Of a stretch of 64,000 nucleotides of DNA, positions 878-64,000 are shown piece by piece (positions within the stretch are counted from its first letter, which is position 1; the number at the start of each line of letters is the position of its first letter). Position numbers and translations under genes: made by a program. This DNA is from Octopus vulgaris (lineage: Eukaryota). Where the stretch lies: contig OX597829.1 of the NCBI GenBank assembly GCA_951406725.2, forward strand, positions 5,456,001-5,520,000. Direction: 5' to 3'. The notes beneath the pieces were generated by a model. It did no database searches. It had not been told where the DNA came from and saw nothing but the letters and a program-made list of their open reading frames with translations.

Positions 878-1207
878 ATGAGCAGAATTTAGGCTAGTTG
901 AAATATACAGTTCTATATTTAAGCGATGACGAATTATGTACATTATTTACATTATTTACATTTGACGGATATTTGTCCTCATCTTGTTTGTTGTTAACAC
1001 AACGTTTCGGTTGATATACCCTCCAGCCTTCATCAGGTGTCTTGGGGATATTTCGCATTTGGGTTCTCATTCCTAACGTATTTTTCGATTGCTGTTATTA
1101 TTATTATTGTTGTTGTTGTTGTTGTTGTTATTCAGGTCATTACCTGGAATCGAACTCGGAATCTTGGGGCTAGTAGCCCGCGCTCTTAATCACTACGCCA
1201 TACGCCC
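878..1207 (-). mobile_element. tRNA-headed, hammerhead-containing short non-autonomous retroelement (family H1)
   Basis: Minus strand reads GGGCGTA-TGGCGTAGTGA (A-box-like)...GAGTTCGATTCC (B-box), then (TAA/CAA)n, a linker, a hammerhead motif and a (GTAAATAAT)n tail. Related body copies at 1222-1340(+), 19860-19978(-) and 63730-63881(+). Confidence 0.8.
996..1041 (-). ncRNA. Minimal type-I hammerhead ribozyme motif (family H1)
   Basis: GACAC CUGAUGA A GGCUG[GAGGGUAUAU]CAACC GAAA CG UU GUGUU. Stem I GACAC/GUGUU, stem II with one mismatch, palindromic ACGU stem III, GUU triplet. Confidence 0.8.
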
Positions 1208-1234
1208 GTGGGCAATTAAGGAAATTTTCCCCAA

Positions 1235-1280
1235 GACACCTGATGAAGGCTTGAGGGTATATCTGCCGAAACGTTGTGTT
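1235..1280 (+). ncRNA. Minimal type-I hammerhead ribozyme motif (family H1, inverted copy)
   Basis: GACAC CUGAUGA A GGC...GCC GAAA CG UU GUGUU. Lies in 1222-1340, an inverted partial copy of 940-1055. Confidence 0.8.
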
Positions 1281-1461
1281 AACAACAAACAAGATGAGGA
1301 CAAATATTCATCAAATGTAAATAATGTAAATAATGTAAATATGTTTCTGACATATTTCAATTGCTAAAAGACATTACATTGCAGTTACCGTGGAAGATAT
1401 CTCCTATGATAAAACGCTGTGAAAAATCGTTTTTACGTTCAGTATCTGCCTCTATTAGGAA

Positions 1462-4357: not shown

Positions 4358-4604
4358 CTTTATTTGTTTCAGTCATTAGACTACGGCCATGCTGGGGTAC
4401 AGCCTTGAAGTTTTAGTCGAATAAATCGGCCCTAGTACATCCTTTCTAAGTCTGGTATTTATTCTATCGGTCTCTATTGCCGAAGCGCTATGTTACGGAG
4501 ACGCAAATACAGCAACACCGGTTGTCAAGCGGTAGTGGGGAGACAAAGAGAGTCACAACGACACATACACACACATCCTCACACACACACACACACAAAC
4601 ATAC

Positions 4605-4646
<42 letters not shown>

Positions 4647-4796
4647 GAATGCTTCTTTCAGTTTCCGTCAACCAAATCCACTGCTAAAGCTTTGGTGGGC
4701 CCGAGGCTACAGAAGACACTCTCCCTAGGTGTCATGCAGTAGGACTGAACCCAGAATTATGTGGATGGGAAATAAGTTGCAGGCACACCCGCACCT
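4358..4796 (-). mobile_element. tRNA-derived SINE family A, diverged copy
   Basis: Diverged match to the 24609-25023 copy, including the internal (TA)n(TG)n tract and the cagcatggcc...gactgaaacaa tail. Confidence 0.85.
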
Positions 4797-4842: not shown

Positions 4843-4893
<51 letters not shown>

Positions 4894-4902
4894 TTTTTTT
4901 TT

Positions 4903-5291
4903 TTTACTTGTTTCAGTCATTTTGACTGCGGCCGTGCTGGAGCACCGCCTTTTAGTCGAGCAACTCGACCCCGGGACTTATTCTTTTTGTAAGCCCAGTA
5001 CTTATTCTATCGGTCTCTTTTGCCGAACCGCTAAGTGACAGGGACGTAAACACACCAGCATCGGTTGTCAAGCAATGCTAGGGGGACAAACACAGACACA
5101 CAAACACACACACGCATATAAACATATATACGACGGGCTTCTTTCAGTTTCCGTCTACCAAATCCACTCACAAGGCTTTGGTCGGCCCGAGGCTATAGTA
5201 GAAGACACTTGTCCAAGGTGCCACGCAGTGGGACTGAACCCGGAACCATGTGGTTGGTAAAGAAGCTACTTACCACACAGCCACTCCTGCG

Positions 5292-5293
<2 letters not shown>
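4903..5293 (-). mobile_element. tRNA-derived SINE family A, full length
   Basis: Head GGCGCAGGAGTGGCTGTGTGG...GGTTCAGTCCC (A/B boxes), body, and tail GGCGGTGCTCCAGCACGGCCGCAGTCAAAATGACTGAAACAAGTAAA. Confidence 0.92.
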
Positions 5294-5340
<47 letters not shown>

Positions 5341-8477: not shown

Positions 8478-8805
8478 TTGCACCTTGGGCAAGTGTCTTC
8501 TACTATAGCCTCGGACCGACCAAAGCCTTGTGAGTGGATTTGGGAGACGGAAACTGAAAGAAGCCCGTAATATATATGTATGTATATACATGTATGTGTG
8601 TGTATATGTTAGTGTGTTTGTTCCCCTAACATCGCTTGACAACCGATGCTGGTGTGTTTACGTCCCCGTTACATAGCGGTTCGGCAAATGGGATCGATAG
8701 AATAAGTACTAGGCTTACAAAGAATAAGTCCTGGGGTCGATTTCCTCGACTAAAGGCAGTGCTCCAGCATGGCCACAGTCACATGACTGAAACAAGTAAA
8801 AAGTA
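8478..8805 (+). mobile_element. SINE family A, 5'-truncated
   Basis: Starts at gcaccttgggcaagtgtcttc and ends at gactgaaacaagtaaaa. Confidence 0.9.
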
Positions 8806-9117
8806 AAAAAAAAAATAAACAAAAAAAAGTATCATACAAAGACTTTGTCGGTTCACCATTCCAGAAGCAGGAGAAAATTGATGGCACCGGTACAAAGCCA
8901 CGTTCGCAGTAAGATGAAATAACCAAAGAAGAAGAACATTCAGGGATGACAGAGGGTTTTCTGAGATATAGACGGACACAAGAAGGGACACCAGACCTTT
9001 TTTTCTGAAAACGAAACAATCTCGATACTAGATTCTAGAACTGGAAGTGACTCATTTCTGTCAAGACGTCAAAACTAATACAAAATAGTAATACGGCAGA
9101 CATATAGTTGGAGATAA

Positions 9118-19859: not shown

Positions 19860-19978
19860 ATGTTTTCATTATTTACATTATTTACAACTGACGGATATTT
19901 GTCCACATCTTGTTTGTTGTTAACACAACGTTTCGGCTGATATACCCTCCAGCCTTCTTGAGGTGTCTTGGGGAAATT
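19860..19978 (-). mobile_element. Family H1 fragment with a mutated hammerhead core
   Basis: GACAC CUCAAGA A GGCUG..CAGCC GAAA CG UU GUGUU at 19922-19967; core G5 is changed to C. Confidence 0.8.
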
Positions 19979-23633: not shown

Positions 23634-24608
23634 TACAAACATTACAAATTTTGTAGAATATATTCACTCCATTATTTTGAAGTCTGTGCATATCTTCTTA
23701 TTTTAATACTTTATTTCGGAACTATACAACGTTTCACTTCATGTAATCTACTTTTCTCTGGGAGAGGTAATAACTCCAACATTTTTCCTACCCTTTTATA
23801 CTTTTGCAACTCTACTTTTTGTAACACCTTTTGTAACACCCTAACCCTAACCCTTCCTCTGATAATTAGATCACTCAAATAACAGTCAAAGTACCTGTCA
23901 AATGCTTCAGGGGAACCTCTCGATCATTTGAAATGATGTATTTTACATATGCTTTGTCGGCTTACCACTTCTGGACATCTGCAACACACGAAGTCATTCT
24001 TGTTTGGCAGCCTGCATATGGATCCTCAAATTACGGGATCACCTGCTCCTGTACCCTTAATCTTTTTCCATGAAACCTCCATCAACCTTTATCTGCGCAG
24101 GTAAGTTTTCATACCCAAGTCTTTTCAACCATTATGGCTCCGTCAGTGGTATTCTCGTGGAGAAATCTTTCACGTTTGCTGGTCAGCTTACATCCAGTTC
24201 CCATGTTATAAGTTATAGCACTTTATACATATTTAGCAAAACTGCATTAAAGCTTTCCTTCACCATTTTATCTGTCTTACCATGTATATGTATACACATA
24301 CTTGCTAAGTGCAAAATTATCACCCTCTTCGCTCCAAAGCCACAAGAATACTGCTGCTAAGGACCTTTTCAAGTTAACGAGAGAGCCTCTACATAATTAA
24401 CCCCTGTAGGTAGTAACATAAAATTAAAAATAAGGAAAGAGTACTCCAAGGTAAGAACTATTTTGATTTTTTTTAATAGTCGCCAAGTGATCAGAGATGA
24501 AGAATTTGCTGGTTCTGCATACAAACGCTAGTCTTTGTGGTGCATTTTGCTTTAACTATGTCATGTATGTGGGATTACCAGAAAAGATCATCTGAGATTC
24601 TACATATA

Positions 24609-25023
24609 GGCGCAGGAGTGGCTGTGTGGTGAGTAGCTTGCTTACCAACCACATGGTTCCGGGTTCAGTCCCACTGCGTGGCACCTTGGGCAAGTGTCTT
24701 CTACTATAGCCTCGGGCCGACCAAAGCCTTGTGAGTGGATTTGGTAGACGGAAACTGAAAGAAGCCCGTCGTATATATGTATGTGTGTATATGTTTGTGT
24801 GTCTGTGTTGTGTGTCTGTGTTTGCCCCCCCCCCCCAACATCGCTTGACAACCGATGCTGGTGTGTTTGTGTCCCTGTAACTTAGCGGTTCGGCAAAAGA
24901 GACCGATAGAATAAGTACTAGGCTTACAAAGAATAAGTCCTGGGGTCGATTTAGTCGACTAAAAGCAGTGCTCCAGCATGGCCGCAGTCAAATGACTGAA
25001 ACAAGTAAAAGAGAGTAAAGAGT
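24609..25023 (+). mobile_element. SINE family A, full length
   Basis: Complete head with A/B boxes, body, microsatellite and gactgaaacaagtaaaagag tail. Confidence 0.93.
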
Positions 25024-25405
25024 ATGCCTTCAAGTGTAAATAATTTGGTATTCCTGACAGTGAATGCATTCATTGTTGTATGTCTATCTATCTGAATAAG
25101 ACTCTGTGTTGAAAGATCATATATCAATGAATAAAAATATAAAATGAAGGGAAATATAATGACTCATATTAATACGTAACTGAGCTGGGTTTGTAGAAAT
25201 AAAAAGATTCTCTATTATTGAAAATATGCAGCAAGAAATACAGACAAGGAGCCATCCATGCACACATACAGATAATAACAAATACATACACATAAAAAAT
25301 AATCAAAAACAAACATACAAGCTTGAAAACGTGTGTATGAGTGGCATATTTATACACATACACACATATATGCATATATATATATGTATATATATATATA
25401 CATAA

Positions 25406-25702: not shown

Positions 25703-27561
25703 CGTGTGTGTGTGTATATATGTTTAAAATACATACATATACGCACATATCACACGCATGCATACGCATATATATATAGATGCATGTATGTATATATATA
25801 TGTTTTGTGAGCGCATATGCATGTATATTTTTATGTACATATATATATATATATATTTGTGCGTATTTAACATTGTATGTATGTACGTATGTATGTAATG
25901 CCGACATAAGGTAAGATATTGGCGGTTCTATTATTGCTCTCCTGTATATTGAATCTGCTCTGAGACCGAAACAGTTTGAAATACAGGCAACTAAATTATC
26001 AATAGAGGGAAATTTTAGCGGTAAAAGATTTTGCCTTTTATCAGCAGGGGTTTACATGCAATATTGCCATGATATATGTGAATTGATTCCACTCTCAAAG
26101 AAAGTAAATTATATTTATCTATTTGTTTGTTTATTTGTTTATTTATTTATTTATCTAGCATTGAGCTTGTCTGGGTCTTTCACAATGAAAACAATTCTTT
26201 TCGGAACTGAATAAAAAAAAAAAGAAAAAAGAGATAAAAGAAAAAATATATATGTATACAAAAATGAAGAGTTTTGACTACGAAAGAGTTGTAATGAAAG
26301 ACGATTTGTCTGCTCCATTACTTTATGTGTTGGTAAAATGTTTTGAAGGTCGTAAGAAAATAAATATTGCATGGACGTTTTAATTGAATTATATAAAAAA
26401 AAAATGTGTTTTGGTTTATGTAAATAATAAGTATTGGTTTGTGTACACACACACACACACACTCACACATTTAAATGTTGTCTCTTGTGTTAAATAAGCT
26501 TATGTTTCGTTGCTGGAACTGTCTTTAATTAGATTCTGCATTTACTACAAGTAAAAATAGACGGCAGTATATTGGCAGAATTGGTATAAAAGCAGGGAAA
26601 AAATGCTTTGCGATGTTTAACCATGTTTCTTTACGTTCTGACACTCAATTTCACTAATGTCGATTTTATCTTTCTTTCATCCGTCCTGAGTCGATGAAAT
26701 AAGAACCAGCCAAGCACTAGAATCAATTTAATAAACTTTAGAACTCCCCGGCTATGTCGCATAAATTATTACTATTTATAATGATTGTTGGAATATTTTA
26801 GCGGGATTGGTAAATAAAAACTTTTTTGTGGTATTTAGTCATTATGTTCTAAGTTTAAATTTCACAAACAATATTTCCAGTCAAGAAATAGACTTAATTT
26901 AATTGACTAAACACTTACCGTAAAATATTGTGTCCTTGTGTTTCAGTAATTTCTTCCCAAAGCGGTGTCCTACTTCTACAACCTTAAGTAAATAAACTTT
27001 ACTATATTAGTTTGTTTTACAAATAGATTGTGCCTTTAAAATTTGTATTTATGTGTATATATTTTTTATAAACAATACTATTTTCCTATACCAACAAATG
27101 TTCAATCTTGTATATTTACATAGTGTTCTTTTCATCACTACTCCGTCATGTAGAGTCGCGGGTATATTTGCAGATAAGATCAGAATACGATTCTTCTTAC
27201 CAGCAAAAGGAAAATATTATTAGTTATTTTCTAACGTTCTTTTTTTCCCACTGCATATCTTTTTGTACTTAATTCTTTTAATGATCTATGCATTCAATAT
27301 ATTAGCAATAAAACATTTATATCAATATAGAGTTCATAGCATTGATAATACAGAATTGATAATTTTCTCAATTACAATTCGCAAATAGTTACTCTTCAAG
27401 AGAGGAACCTGGTCAATCTGCTTTTTAACCATAAATTATGTTATTAATGTTATCTAGAAATAGGTCGTCCTTTCAACGAATTTTCATCTGCAATTTGGCG
27501 TCAAAATTAGTCTTTCTTAATTAAAACCAGTGTGTAAAGTAGGAAATGAATATTTTCTTAT

Positions 27562-27980
27562 CTTTTACTTGTTTCAGTCATTAGACTGTGGCCATGCTGT
27601 GGCACCGCCTTGAAGAATATTTAGTTGAATGTATCGACTACAATACCTATTTTTTTCTATAAAGCCTGGTACTTATTCTATTGGTCTCTTTTACCGAACC
27701 GCTAACTTACAGGGACGTAAACACACCAGCACCGGTTGTCAAGTGGCGGAGTAGGTGGGGACAAACACAGACACAGACACACACTTGGACATACACACGC
27801 ACTCACTCACACATTTATATATATAATAAGACGCGCTTCTTTCAGTTTCCGTCTACCAAATCCACTCAAAATATTTTGGTCGGCTCGAGGCTATAGAAGA
27901 TACTTTCCCAACGTGCCACGCTGTGGAACTGAATCCAGAACCAAATGACTGGGAAGGAAGCTTATTTTCACACAGCCACA
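27562..27980 (-). mobile_element. SINE family A, diverged
   Basis: Colinear with 24609-25023. Confidence 0.85.
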
Positions 27981-28769
27981 CCAGAGCATCATCTTTTATA
28001 ATAAAGTTGTGTGGTTAAATGATTAACCTTGCAGTCACATGCGTTCTAGTCAATTCCGCTTGCATGGCACCCTGTTATTAAGAATCGTTCATGCTTTAAG
28101 ACTGAATTGTGTAGAAAAGAAAACTGGAATGGTAACAAAGACCGTTTTTGAAGGAGGGCAACAAACTAGAAACGGTCGAATAACATTAAAAAATTGGATA
28201 AACAAACAAAACTAACAGACAAATCATTAGTGAAAACTCCATTGTCGACACACAGCAATGGCATCTAGAAGAAATATATTACAACAGTACCTCTACGACT
28301 CCATCGCAGTTATGAAGGCCCAAACGAAAACCCTCAGAGCCATTTTTTCATAAATACTAATGCTGCGCCGCCTACGGTCATTAATCTTAGGCATAAGCTA
28401 AACAAGCTACAACAATTTTAGGATCATAAACTACAGGAACCGCAAAGGAATTAAAATGAAACATATGCTTTCAATTTCCTTGACACTTCTTGGTACTAAG
28501 TTTTTAATGAGAGCCTACCAAGTTTATATAAATTAAGGCCTCACCATGTCTCTCGATTTCATACTACCACCGGTTGCAAACAATCTGAACAAGTCTTTTG
28601 TTTGATGTTAACAAGGTATTTTAACGTTTTGCTTCTTACCGTAGCGACCATGAATTGCACCGTTTTCTTTCCTTTTCTGCTCCCATTTTCCGGTACCAAA
28701 TAAAAATTTCATAAATGTTGCGCTTTGTACTTTGATAAAGCCATATGTTGTTTGCTTTTTCCCCTTATA

Positions 28770-28931
28770 GGCGCAGGAGTGGCTGTGTGGTAAGTAGCTT
28801 GTTTACCAACCACATGGTTCCGGGTTCAGTCCCACTGAGTGGCACCTTGAGCAAGTGCCTTCTACTATAGCCTCGGGCCGTTTAAAGCCTTGTGAGTGGA
28901 TTTGGTAGGCGGAAACTGAAAGAAGCCCGTC

Positions 28932-29011
<80 letters not shown>

Positions 29012-29218
29012 ATGTGTCTGTGTTTGTCCCCCTAGCATTGCTTGACAACCGATGCTGGTGTGTTTATGTCCCGTTACTTAGCGGTTCGGCAAAAGAAACC
29101 GATAGAATAAGTACTAGGCTTACAAAAGAATAAATCCCGGGGTCGAGTTACTCGATTGAAGGCGGTGCTTCAGCATGGCCGCAGTCAAATGACTGAAACA
29201 AGTAAAAGAGTAAAAGAG
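28770..29218 (+). mobile_element. SINE family A, full length
   Basis: Colinear with 24609-25023. Confidence 0.93.
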
Positions 29219-29391
29219 AGAGAGTTATACATTTTTCCTAGTTAACCTCTTCATAGTAAATTTTGCAGTGTCCCATTGTGTCACTGTGATAATCTATAGT
29301 TGGAATTTACAAAAAAGCAAAACAAAAGACGAAGACGGGTGTGTAGACAAGAAACAGATGTATTAGTTTAACGCTCGGGAAGTGAGAATGT

Positions 29392-44276: not shown

Positions 44277-45143
<867 letters not shown>

Positions 45144-52713: not shown

Positions 52714-52867
52714 GGTGGCTGTGTGGTAAGTAGCTTGTTTACCAACCACATGGTTCCGAGTTCAGTCCCACTGCGTGACACCTTGGGCAGGTGTCTTCTA
52801 CTATAGCCTCGGGCCGACCAAAGTCTTGTGAGTGGATTTGGTAGACGGAAACTGAAAGAAGCCCGTC

Positions 52868-52912
<45 letters not shown>

Positions 52913-53307
52913 AGCAGGAGTGGCTGTGTGGTAAGTAGCTTGCTTACCAACTACATGGTCCGGGTTCAGTCCCACTGCATGGCACCTTGGGTAAGTGTCT
53001 TCTACTATAGCCTCGGGCCGGCCAAAGCCTTGTGAGTGGATTTGGTAGACGGAAACTGAAAGAAGCCCGTCGTATATATGTATATATATATATGCGTGTG
53101 TGTGTTTGTGCGTCTGTATTTGTCCCCCTAGCATTGCTTGACAACCGATGCTGGTGTGTTTATGTCCCCGTCACTTAACGGTTCGGCAAAAAGAGACCGA
53201 TAGAATAAGTACTGGGCTTACAAAGAATAAGTCCCGGGGTCGAGTTGCTCGATTAAAGGCGGTGCACCAGCATGGCCGCGGTCAAAATGACTGAAACAAG
53301 TAAAAAG
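52714..53307 (+). mobile_element. SINE family A, head-only copy (52714-52868) followed by a full copy (52911-53307)
   Basis: Two consecutive heads separated by (TA)n. Confidence 0.9.
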
Positions 53308-54208
53308 AAAAAAAAAAGAGATACATTCCAACCTAACCATCATTTGATTATCAGGACTGGTAGACTGAAAAACGCCTGCGGTATTTAGTTGTTCTTTACG
53401 AGTTGAGTCCGGTCCGGGTTGCTGGGTTCAACATCCTCGACTGCACCAAGTAAAACCACAGGACAAAAAGCCTAGTCTTGTTCATTTGTTAAGAACAAAT
53501 ATTTATATGTTTAATAGATAGCAGAACCGACAGAGTATAAAATACCATTGGTCTTTTACGACGGAAAGGACCAGTAGTATTTGAGTTCCTTTCACATGGT
53601 CAATAAAGACAAAAATTAAAAAAAGAAGCAATTAGTAATCGAATTAATCAATTATATCTCCCACAGGACCACTGAATTTGTGCTTATGTAATAAATAACC
53701 ATCATTATTATTGCTATTTAGGCTGAGTCAAACCTAATATTTTGAGTTGAATGATATCTAGAATTACCCCTTATATATCACACGTGGAAAAACAAAAAAT
53801 GGTTAAAAAAAATAAAATGGTATCCGTTATTTATGTTCCCGTGTTGACTTACAGCAACAGTATGTATCTGTCTAAAACAGCATGCATTCATCTTCAGAAT
53901 TTTCCTTCTTTCCATCTTTACTTTAAAAACAGTGCAGACTGTTTTGACACTTAGACATAGCAAATTGCGTGTATGTGTGCGTGCGCGCGAGTCGGTGTGT
54001 GTATGATTATGTGCACACGCACACACTTGTGTGCAATGCCTGAATGTATACATAAGTATGTGTATGAATCAAAGTGCTTCTTTGTACATTTATATACACA
54101 CAAATTCCAATGTATTGACATGCATATATAGAGAATCACGTACACATATAAGTCAATAATATGCATATATATACATATATATGTGTGTGTGTATGTGTGT
54201 GTGTATGC

Positions 54209-55535: not shown

Positions 55536-55590
55536 CATATATATGTGTGTGTGTGTGCGTGTGTGGTGAACGAGAGAGAGAGAGGGGGGC

Positions 55591-55759
55591 AGGTGTGGCT
55601 GTGTGGAAAGAAACGTCCTAACAACATGGTTCAGGTTCAGTACCGCAGCTTAGCATTGTGGGTAAGTAAATTCTTCCGTAGTCTCTCAGGCCGAATAAAG
55701 TCTAGTGAGAGCATTTGGTAACTGAATGCAGCCTGTCGTGTATATGTATACATATATAT

Positions 55760-55790
<31 letters not shown>

Positions 55791-55975
55791 CGCGTGTGTA
55801 TGTGTGTTGTTGTGCCTTTGTGTCTGTGTTTGGCCGTTACAACCGCTTAGCGGTTCGACCAAAGATGCAGATAGAATACGTACCAAGCTTTAAAGAAAAG
55901 ATACTGGATTCGATTTGTTCGATGAAATTCTTCAAAAGGTGCCCCAGCATGGCCGCAGTCGAATGGAACAACTAG
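55591..55975 (+). mobile_element. SINE family A, old diverged copy
   Basis: gtggctgtgtgg...catggttcaggttcagt...ggtgccccagcatggccgcagtc. Confidence 0.75.
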
Positions 55976-56229
55976 AATATAAAAAATCGAAACAGGGGCA
56001 GCTGATGAAGGGGAACATTCCTTGTATTGTTTGTCTTGTACTCTGTTTTTTCGTTGTTAAAAAAAGTCCGTTTCCTTGTTTGATTTTATGCTTTCGTTTC
56101 TCGTTATGTTCTACGTTTATTTGTGGTGTCCTGTTCTCATATATGCATGTATATATACATATAGATGTAGGTATGTACATATTTGTATGTATGTATGTAT
56201 GTATGCATATGTTTTATTTACTAAATTGT

Positions 56230-56944: not shown

Positions 56945-57504
56945 CATATATACGACGGGCTTCTTTCAGTTTCCGTCTACCAAATCTGCGCCAATTTTCT
57001 GTTAATTTATTCTAAATCAGTTGTATTTAATGACGTTGATAAATTGTGAAAAACAGTACAGTCAACTGATACATCCCTGAAGGAAAATAGATAGATTTAG
57101 ACAAAACTTAGTCGCATAAAAAACAAGTTTCCCGATTTATGGAACCCAAACCCCAAACCCTAACCTCAATATAGTGTGCTTCTATTCTCTACATAGCTTC
57201 GATGTTTAAATTCAACTTTACTCTTTTACTTGTTTCAGTTATTTGACTGTGGCCATGCTGGAGCACCGCCTTTAGTCGAGCAAATCGAACCCAGGGCTTA
57301 TTCTTTGTAAGCCTAGTACTTATCCTTTCGATCACTTTTGCCGAACCACTAACTTATTCTAATGCTAGGGGGACAAACACAGACACACTAACTTACGGGG
57401 ACATAAACACACCAGCATCGGTTGTCAAGCGATGTTGGGGGGACAAACACAGACACACAAACATATACACACACACATACATACATACATACATACATAC
57501 ATAC

Positions 57505-57562
<58 letters not shown>

Positions 57563-57761
57563 CGACGGGCTTCTTTCAGTTTCCGTCTACCAAATCCACT
57601 CACAAGGCTTTGATCGGCCCGAGGCTATAGTAGAAGACACCTGTCCAAGGTGCCACGCAGTGAGACTGAACCCGGAACCATGTGGTTGGTAAGCAAGCTA
57701 CTTACCACACAGCCACTCCTACTTACCACACAGCCACTCCTACTTACCACACAGCCACTCC
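56767..57761 (-). mobile_element. Two SINE family A copies (internally deleted at 56767-56985; full at 57217-57761)
   Basis: Colinear with the other family A copies. Confidence 0.88.
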
Positions 57762-62613: not shown

Positions 62614-62737
<124 letters not shown>

Positions 62738-62864
62738 TTATTATTATTATTATTATAATAATGATGATGATGAGGAGGAGGAGGAGGAGGAGGAGGATGA
62801 CGATGACGACGACTACAACAACAACAACGACAACAACGACAACAACAACAATAATAATAATGAT

Positions 62865-63571
62865 AAAGCACTAAGAACAAAATATGTAAAAAACAGAATT
62901 GACAACACATCAGAAAGTGATAAGTGCAGAACCTGTGGACAAAGTGGTAAAACCGTATGGCATATTACCAGTCAATGTACACCACTAGCCCAGAAGGAAT
63001 GTAAGAGAGGCCACGACAATATAGCAAGGCTTATCCATTGGACATTCTGCAACAAGTATGGACTTGACAGAGCAAAGAATTGGTACGACCACAAACCTGA
63101 ATGCATCGATGAAAATAGAAATGCAAAGATCCTATAGGATTTTATGATTCAGTGCGATCATGAGATGGAGAATAGGAGACCAGACATAGTCTTAATTGAG
63201 AAAGAAAACAAACTATGCTGGATCATAGATATAGCATGCCCAGCTGATGAAAAGGTATGCGATAAGGAAAAAAGAAAAGTCGAGAGATATGACAGGTTAG
63301 CTTGGGAAGTTAAGCAGTTGTGGTCGATGAAAAAGGTAGCAGTAGTACCAATAATTGTCGGAGCCCTGGGAACAGTGAGCAAAAATCTCGAGAAGTACGT
63401 GGAACAAATAGGGGCTGCAATAAGGGTGGAGCACTTGCAGAAAACAGCACTGCTTGGAACCGCTCGAATACTCCGGAAGGTGCTCGAAAAATAAGAGGTG
63501 TTACCTTAGTTCACTGGTAGTGAACAGCTGATAACGTAGTACATCTCCAGCGTTAGAAGCTGTGCAAAGGC
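62865..63571 (+). mobile_element. 5'-truncated R4/Dong-like LINE in (TAA)n
   Basis: KALRTKYVK..DKCRTCG..TVWHITSQC...RRPDIVLI..IIDIACP..PIIVGALG..LLGTARILRKVL; 3' UTR then (TAA)n. Confidence 0.9.
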
Positions 63572-63581
63572 AATAATAATG

Positions 63582-63708
<127 letters not shown>

Positions 63709-63781
63709 CAACAATAATAACAACAACAACAACATCGAAAAATACCTTAGGAATGAGAATCCATGTTCGAAATTTCTCGAA

Positions 63782-63827
63782 GACACCTGATGAAGGCTGG
63801 AGGGTATATCAGCTGAAATGTTGTGTT
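63782..63827 (+). ncRNA. Hammerhead motif in a family H1 body (63730-63881)
   Basis: GACAC CUGAUGA A GGCUG..CAGCU GAAA UG UU GUGUU; two C-to-T changes at CpG positions relative to the other copies. Confidence 0.7.
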
Positions 63828-64000
63828 AACAACAAACAAGATGAGGACAAATATCCGTCAAATGTAAATAATGTAAATAATGAAGAAGAAGAAGAATCCT
63901 TTCTATTATATGAAGAAGGCCTGAAATTCTGGAGAGGGCGGTAGTCGATTGCACCGACCCCAGGGCACAACTGGTGCTTATTTTATCGATTACCATAATG

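Follow-up and report, generated by a model that had tools for sequence, protein, structure and literature searches.

As a rule, SINEs parasitise LINEs as elements in their own right, and where a terminal repeat is known to hold a Pol III promoter, the element concerned is a non-coding LTR element. Penelope-like elements (PLEs) of the Penelope/Poseidon type, including the anole element PAc, carry a single ORF encoding reverse transcriptase (RT) and GIY-YIG endonuclease, and their pseudo-LTR (pLTR) overlaps the start of that ORF (PMC11167929, PMC3846280; these and the other articles cited here are drawn on in part). In PAc-type elements the hammerhead lies in the first codons and an AC-rich stretch serves as an internal RT start, and two internal RT starts were demonstrated in vitro for the anole element (PMC11167929). 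Rotifer Penelope shows inverted pLTRs, a one-sided tail, and short duplications (PMC3846280), and Poseidon-type PLEs more generally have an optional tail of 30–40 nt on one inverted pLTR, 8–10 bp duplications, and inverted 5′ copies (PMC3846280, PMC11167929). Minimal PLE hammerheads have no loop 3, a palindromic 15.2-16.2, an extra base before stem II, a long stem II, and a 5-bp stem I, and they occur as opposite-strand pairs 100–700 bp apart (PMC4209133). The octopus locus described here is like these systems in the features listed, and its predicted hammerhead is, by structure, an ordinary minimal PLE member. It is unlike Poseidon-type PLEs in that its pLTR holds a tRNA-derived A/B-box module at which most head-bearing copies begin.

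We studied a 64,000-nucleotide stretch of Octopus vulgaris DNA (contig OX597829.1), hereafter the window. A sequence-only reading had proposed that it contains, from position 878, a non-autonomous, Pol III-transcribed, self-cleaving element. Several of its observations stand: a tRNA-like head with A and B boxes, a (TAA/CAA)n run, and then a hammerhead motif are all present on the minus strand, no run of four T (T4) separates head from hammerhead, and the inverted partial copy reported 5′ of the head is found at 1223/1228–1341, 95% identical to the long arm. The extent had to be redrawn, as the element ends at 905 and positions 880–905 belong to an older inverted repeat. The body had also been said to recur at 19860 and 63730; family copies do lie there (19867–19978 and 63689–63882), and both are headless, the one at 19.9 kb with a broken hammerhead core. 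The features are as follows.

905–1222, minus strand: long arm, a Penelope pLTR comprising about 8–15 nt of 3′ UTR, head, microsatellite, ORF start with hammerhead motif, AC-rich repeats, and tail.
1215–1222, minus strand: 3′ UTR remnant 5′ of the head (to about −15), from the junction compared with ORF-linked copies.
1131–1214, minus strand: tRNA-Arg-related head; +1 at 1207, A box at 1200–1190, B box (GTTCGATTCC) at 1155–1146.
About 1091–1130, minus strand: (TAA/CAA)n microsatellite within the pLTR, varying in length from copy to copy.
906–1070, minus strand: Penelope ORF codons 1–55, with ATG at 1070–1068 and a frame that crosses the hammerhead; assigned by 44% identity to the N-terminus of protein P0003.
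996–1041, minus strand: minimal type-I hammerhead motif, by pattern; predicted cut at 1001/1000, one stem II mismatch.
933–963, minus strand: AC-rich (AATGT-type) repeats, where tail-less arms end.
905–932, minus strand: Penelope "tail" of about 30–35 nt, on a single arm, running on into the ORF in full-length copies.
1223–1341, plus strand: second arm, inverted, headless, and tail-less, its own hammerhead core with two stem II mismatches.
19867–19978, minus strand: headless, tail-less arm of the same family, hammerhead core broken.
63689–63882, plus strand: headless, tail-less arm starting in a (TAA)n run behind the 3′ end of another retrotransposon.

By analogy with the anole element (PMC11167929), the AC-rich repeats at 933–963 are likely the proximal internal RT start. 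The element interrupts the left arm of the older inverted repeat, which is about 100 bp long (880–905 plus 1342–1413 against 1644–1745, 72–96% identical) and supplies an empty target site; the 6-bp match between the window copy's own flanks is not above chance. Elsewhere in the window, two retrotransposon 3′ fragments (44277–45143 and 62664–63546) are 86% identical in opposite orientation, have (TAA)n tails, and encode the C-terminus of a restriction-like endonuclease; by motif we take them to be Dong/R4-like. An abundant repeat family of some 410 bp, tRNA-like at one end, containing microsatellites, unrelated to the Penelope pLTR and probably a conventional SINE, is present in at least nine window copies (4359–4776, 4877–5323, 8480–8821, 24601–25025, 27550–27982, 28766–29233, 52715–53327, 55586–55987, and 57216–57723).

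The identity of the insertion follows from its position in longer copies. At one census locus (L077), a GIY-YIG endonuclease is encoded upstream of the head. Across 30 loci anchored on that endonuclease, the head lies about 25 nt past the ORF stop in 28 and the body follows downstream in 27, with RT encoded further upstream in a single ORF whose order is RT and then C-terminal GIY-YIG. In 5′ pLTRs, the body continues directly into the ORF N-terminus, so that the stop of the ORF is followed, after about 25 nt, by the head, (TAA/CAA)n, and the ATG, and then by the hammerhead, the AC-rich repeats, the tail, and the remainder of the ORF. The 55-residue translation of 1070–906, which includes the residues encoded by the hammerhead, is 44% identical to the N-terminus of the 847-aa full-length relative P0003 (E 2e-6); a metagenome scan with P0003 gave no match. 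One natural locus (L368) preserves body, ORF, head, and body together, and there and at two further loci (L256, L263) direct pLTRs flank the ORF and overlap its start. Because the head follows the stop of an RT-GIY-YIG ORF and the body is that ORF's N-terminus, 905–1341 is a solo inverted pLTR insertion and not a separate SINE or retrozyme, and we hold it as practically certain that the feature is a Penelope pLTR. The suggested check of the body against autonomous Penelope pLTRs has thus come out positive, since the body proves to be the N-terminus of an RT-GIY-YIG element. An assembly artefact at the head-ORF junction is unlikely, as a word 34 nt upstream of the head has 790 exact matches in the genome. 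The RT of the element shares 44% identity with an anole protein of 836 aa, likely PAc, and 28% with that of the genome's other PLE family, and from sequence comparison the element is likely of the Penelope/Poseidon type. All ORF copies examined are broken, the longest single frame being 343 aa.

Two other GIY-YIG families were considered as partners and rejected, as neither the dominant one (intact 781-aa ORFs) nor a second one (L061, L369–L374) has body similarity or a matching hammerhead. A young PLE family distinct from that of the window insertion (L051–L060, e.g., L058:818-4521), which we would guess to be Neptune-like, has many intact 781-aa RT-GIY-YIG ORFs with 95–99% identity. Upstream of these and overlapping them is a second ORF, some 479 residues long and of no clear Pfam family, and the family has direct repeats of about 500 bp inserted in (TA)n; a pattern search found no hammerhead in it. 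The (TAA)n of the Penelope pLTR is often expanded or hit by insertions (L195:2018-3499, oriented; L185, L191, L214, L217), and in L195 an RT-coding element has inserted into it.

The family is large and moderately old. Contigs C1–C18 were sampled at round coordinates in 100 stretches of 10 kb, and 18 of these contained the family, which suggests roughly 50,000 loci (30,000–80,000, Poisson). Complete head-plus-body copies are numerous in the genome, judged from a search in which 40 of 4799 candidates were scored. Its age is suggested by the divergence of 133 units from the column majority (median 5.6%, minimum 1.6%). Genome-wide linkage of head and hammerhead, as the sequence-only reading anticipated, is borne out. 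An exact B-box word was used to draw 30 loci in genome order; at 21 of them a body lies on the same strand no more than about 350 nt away, and at 25 one arm or the other contains a body, so that chance nesting of head and body in the microsatellite is rejected. Exact-word counts in the genome were 7247 for the body, 65 (about 1%) for the ORF past the tail, and 3735 for the 5′ end of the head, where the word included two degenerate positions; 656 matches were obtained with a shorter word placed some 85 nt upstream of the 790-count word. In public sequencing runs (contigs, with their type guessed), family sequence occurs under three organism labels.

The integration marks are those of Penelope and not of a LINE, as had also been claimed. 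The 3′ ends are bimodal, 72 of 133 falling at body positions 130–159 and 59 at 170–186, and among 45 inverted pairs, 40 have one tailed arm, five have none, and none has two (p 2.5e-8). Flank words of at least 8 nt are shared in 20 of 43 pairs compared to 38 of 1806 mismatched pairs, and these words, 9–15 bp in length, are target duplications. Inverted pairs, single tail, and duplications agree with rotifer Penelope (PMC3846280), and the marks are also in keeping with the pair of internal RT starts of the anole element (PMC11167929).

For most head-bearing copies, the 5′ end is the tRNA-related head with its A and B boxes. At 51 de-duplicated head-anchored sites, 45 copies begin between −7 and +15 of the tRNA +1, the remaining six start more than 200 nt upstream in the ORF, and none starts between −8 and −214; the anchors restrict 5′ ends to positions upstream of +39 or +2 and leave upstream extension free. 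Before counting, we removed near-identical duplicates (L203, L212) along with seven A-box loci that the B-box set had already supplied; L293 is a possible further duplicate, and L219 and L220 are two arms of a single insertion. The 45 copies at this wall comprise 37 whose junctions, located at a short palindrome, are inverted or of the snap-back type, and eight with plain flanks, the latter (six of them clean by eye) starting at −4 to +6. A few copies end just upstream of the wall, namely the window copy at about −15 and two census copies at about −40; as the window copy overshoots the usual limit of −7, its template RNA likely started further upstream. The promoter-like module appears to determine where tens of thousands of copies have their 5′ ends, and since most head-bearing copies start at the head, the element likely generates SINE-like copies of its own terminus in large numbers.

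The head is related to tRNA-Arg, with a z of 8.6 (against shuffles) to the genome's tRNA-Arg(ACG), which was also its top match among 24 tRNA sequences of six amino-acid types. It carries the short palindrome at −7 to +5, and its anticodon loop and acceptor 3′ half are diverged. ARAGORN called no tRNA in the window, and Rfam tRNA and hammerhead models had no match at 850–1420 (hammerhead cut-off E ≤ 10); of the 248 Rfam matches across the window, the 150 listed were all to miRNA and snoRNA models and fell on simple repeats. Separately, more than 25 tRNA-Arg-like matches, many spaced about 206 bp apart, cluster at G000:C2:211887735-211907142.

The hammerhead was recognised by pattern, a minimal-hammerhead descriptor giving two matches in the window and none in 60 Markov-1 controls. 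The motif has a CUGAUGA core (1036–1030), an extra A, a stem II with five of six pairs and one C-A mismatch, a GAAA (1008–1005), a loop-less palindromic stem III, and a 5-bp stem I. By pattern, the core is intact in 52 of 133 units. Folding of head and body showed no special stability (z −1.1), and two copies co-folded without constraint formed no dimer hammerhead. We consider the hammerhead probably dispensable for making the SINE-like copies.

Beyond the identity of the locus as a pLTR insertion carrying a tRNA-Arg-derived A/B-box module, we think it probable that head-bearing copies are mostly products of the element's own RT-GIY-YIG protein from RNAs started at that module by Pol III. Pol III transcription of the head is plausible from its sequence, with 5′ ends piling up at the tRNA start. 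In the mechanism that we propose, Pol III would initiate some 6 nt upstream of the tRNA +1, on a master copy with the ORF start still present downstream, and the RNA would either end at a leaky TCTTT lying about 75 nt beyond the tail (giving about 400 nt) or read through. The protein, for which a separate capped transcript is the probable source, would nick both target strands and prime RT internally at two sites, the AC-rich end and the tail end; one cDNA would reach the RNA 5′ end, often snap back at the short palindrome, and be joined head-to-head to the second cDNA. The SINE-like class would then be a by-product of the masters rather than a separate lineage. Solo copies are probably dead ends, as they lack the ORF past the tail and the anole protein needs RNA beyond the start sites. 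Two copies (L263:1095-2265 and L345:1145-1815) begin at the tRNA head and continue into the ORF, and they are candidate masters or read-through templates.

A bolder version, which we put forward tentatively and would expect to fail somewhat more readily than to hold, is that the template RNA, both short and full-length, is made by Pol III from the captured tRNA promoter, with T4 runs purged and the leaky TCTTT acting as a switch to the 400-nt RNA. Bearing on both versions, the column-majority sense strand of 2.7 kb contains zero T4 runs and one TCTTT, located 72–78 nt past the tail, and read-through is therefore possible. Letter shuffling predicted 4.8 T4 runs (P 0.005) and a Markov-1 model 2.85 (P 0.056), and with TVTTT included, the Markov-1 model predicted 5.8 against one observed (P 0.022); a synonymous shuffle of a 294-codon piece showed no T4 deficit. 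Decayed single copies have 0–4 T4 runs (four in L240), and five other retrotransposon ORFs of the same genome have 22 in 8 kb. TCTTT is described as a Pol III terminator of about 50% efficiency in mammalian cells (PMC8466645). At 30 loci with the ORF start, 13 of the 17 template-jump points below 130 fall at 50–82 (p 0.003), with the boundary picked post hoc and the anchor forcing values of at least 48. One locus (L337:1064-1923) has three head-to-tail units, each made of the body and the first 78 nt past the tail and each ending at the TCTTT, an array that could be the trace of template jumping, more than once, to the 3′ end of an RNA. We take the T4 deficit and the clustering of jumps near the TCTTT as hints, not proof.

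The foremost alternative, which we judge unlikely, is that the tRNA module, perhaps an old SINE or a piece of a tRNA captured in the pLTR, is a mere passenger, that the wall reflects palindrome fold-back or RT stalling at −7 to +5, or a Pol II start, and that the copies are truncated Penelope insertions. The inverted or snap-back junctions of 37 of the 45 wall copies speak for it, as do the palindromes found at inverted pLTR junctions, with self-priming, in rotifer Penelope, which need no tRNA (PMC3846280), and the usual location of PLE promoters within the pLTR (PMC6765202). However, the eight plain-flank copies stop at the same place, and the wall stands at the 5′ foot of the module, whereas stalling would fall at its 3′ foot. 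The A and B boxes, moreover, have been kept while the anticodon loop and acceptor stem diverged, and the sense strand is without T4 runs.

It is quite improbable, in our view, that the short copies form an independent non-autonomous SINE lineage, with short masters of head, body, and little ORF borrowing the Penelope protein in trans. Short copies do outnumber ORF-linked ones by about 5–8 to 1, and three loci that keep 50–250 nt past the tail (L337, L339, L359) are possible masters. Nevertheless, comparison of 94 short with 30 ORF-linked units, both sets chosen partly by query similarity, found no fixed difference, and three haplotypes are common to 90 short (55:17:14:4) and 26 ORF-linked (15:4:7:0) units at similar ratios, from which it is likely that both kinds of copy derive from the same masters. 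A tRNA-derived SINE in the sense of a distinct non-autonomous lineage was not what we found, as the head lies inside an autonomous element, and the sequence-only reading's non-autonomous element gives way to the pLTR of an autonomous RT-GIY-YIG element, with variants common to both classes.

Hardly credible, finally, is a non-LTR retrozyme, in which hammerhead-cleaved tandem transcripts would yield monomers or circles as retrotransposition templates: P0003 also encodes the hammerhead core, the main non-CpG variable core site is the free position N7, and there is the single three-unit array of L337 (among 30 loci chosen for the ORF start), but the copies are dispersed and mostly inverted with no tandem array at 18 census sites, their ends are the tRNA start, the AC-rich end, and the tail end rather than the cut site, the tandem monomers bounded by that site which the retrozyme claim implied were not seen, headless 5′ ends show no clear excess there (7 of 70, p=0.08), and the anole ribozyme is unneeded for in vitro insertion, with no reads ending at its site (PMC11167929).

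None of the Penelope texts consulted mentions a tRNA module. The word "tRNA" is absent from the portion of PMC3846280 consulted and has a single, unrelated use in that of PMC8557442, and our literature search, in which subscription papers were thinly covered, found no Penelope element with a tRNA-derived promoter. Among octopus repeats, the published SINE families include OK, OR1, and OR2, the last a CORE SINE (PMC4758252), and the consulted part of an octopus repeat annotation (PMC13282606) gives class totals only and makes no mention of hammerheads in its supplement. The family may already be catalogued in Repbase or Dfam under a SINE or a Penelope name, and repeat annotation may divide such an element into a "SINE" and a "Penelope" family. 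For the integration mechanism of Penelope, its fixed 5′ end, two 3′ ends, and inverted junctions make up a large natural data set, one that also indicates where the hammerhead is not required. If the bolder version is true, a Penelope element would act as its own SINE, its 400-nt RNA would flood the genome with SINE-like copies, and the locus would be a snapshot of how a Penelope-driven SINE might arise.

Three further systems come close. The schistosome SM-alpha/Sj-alpha repeats are like the octopus unit in being short and in having a Pol III-type promoter followed by a type-I hammerhead (PMC6765202, PMC8490949); SM-alpha, however, is tandem and released by an active ribozyme, with no autonomous partner named in the parts of those articles used here, whereas the octopus unit belongs to an autonomous element, occurs as scattered copies, and does not have its boundaries at the cut site. 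Animal retrozymes are likewise short, hammerhead-bearing derivatives of PLE pLTRs, often solo monomers, but they are defined by tandem units with a ribozyme in each, and the part of their description consulted reports no tRNA head (bioRxiv 10.64898/2026.07.22.740005). The TRIMp3 elements (Cassandra, Helenus, Ajax) share with the octopus element a small-RNA-derived Pol III promoter in the terminal repeat, but they are non-coding LTR elements whose partners are expected to use Pol II and have no repeat in common with them, and Penelope is not mentioned in the part of that account drawn on (PMC10886601). In the octopus, by contrast, it is the coding Penelope element itself whose repeat carries the promoter-like module, and what appears to be new is a coding Penelope pLTR with a tRNA-type promoter module that seems to define a SINE-like class of copies.
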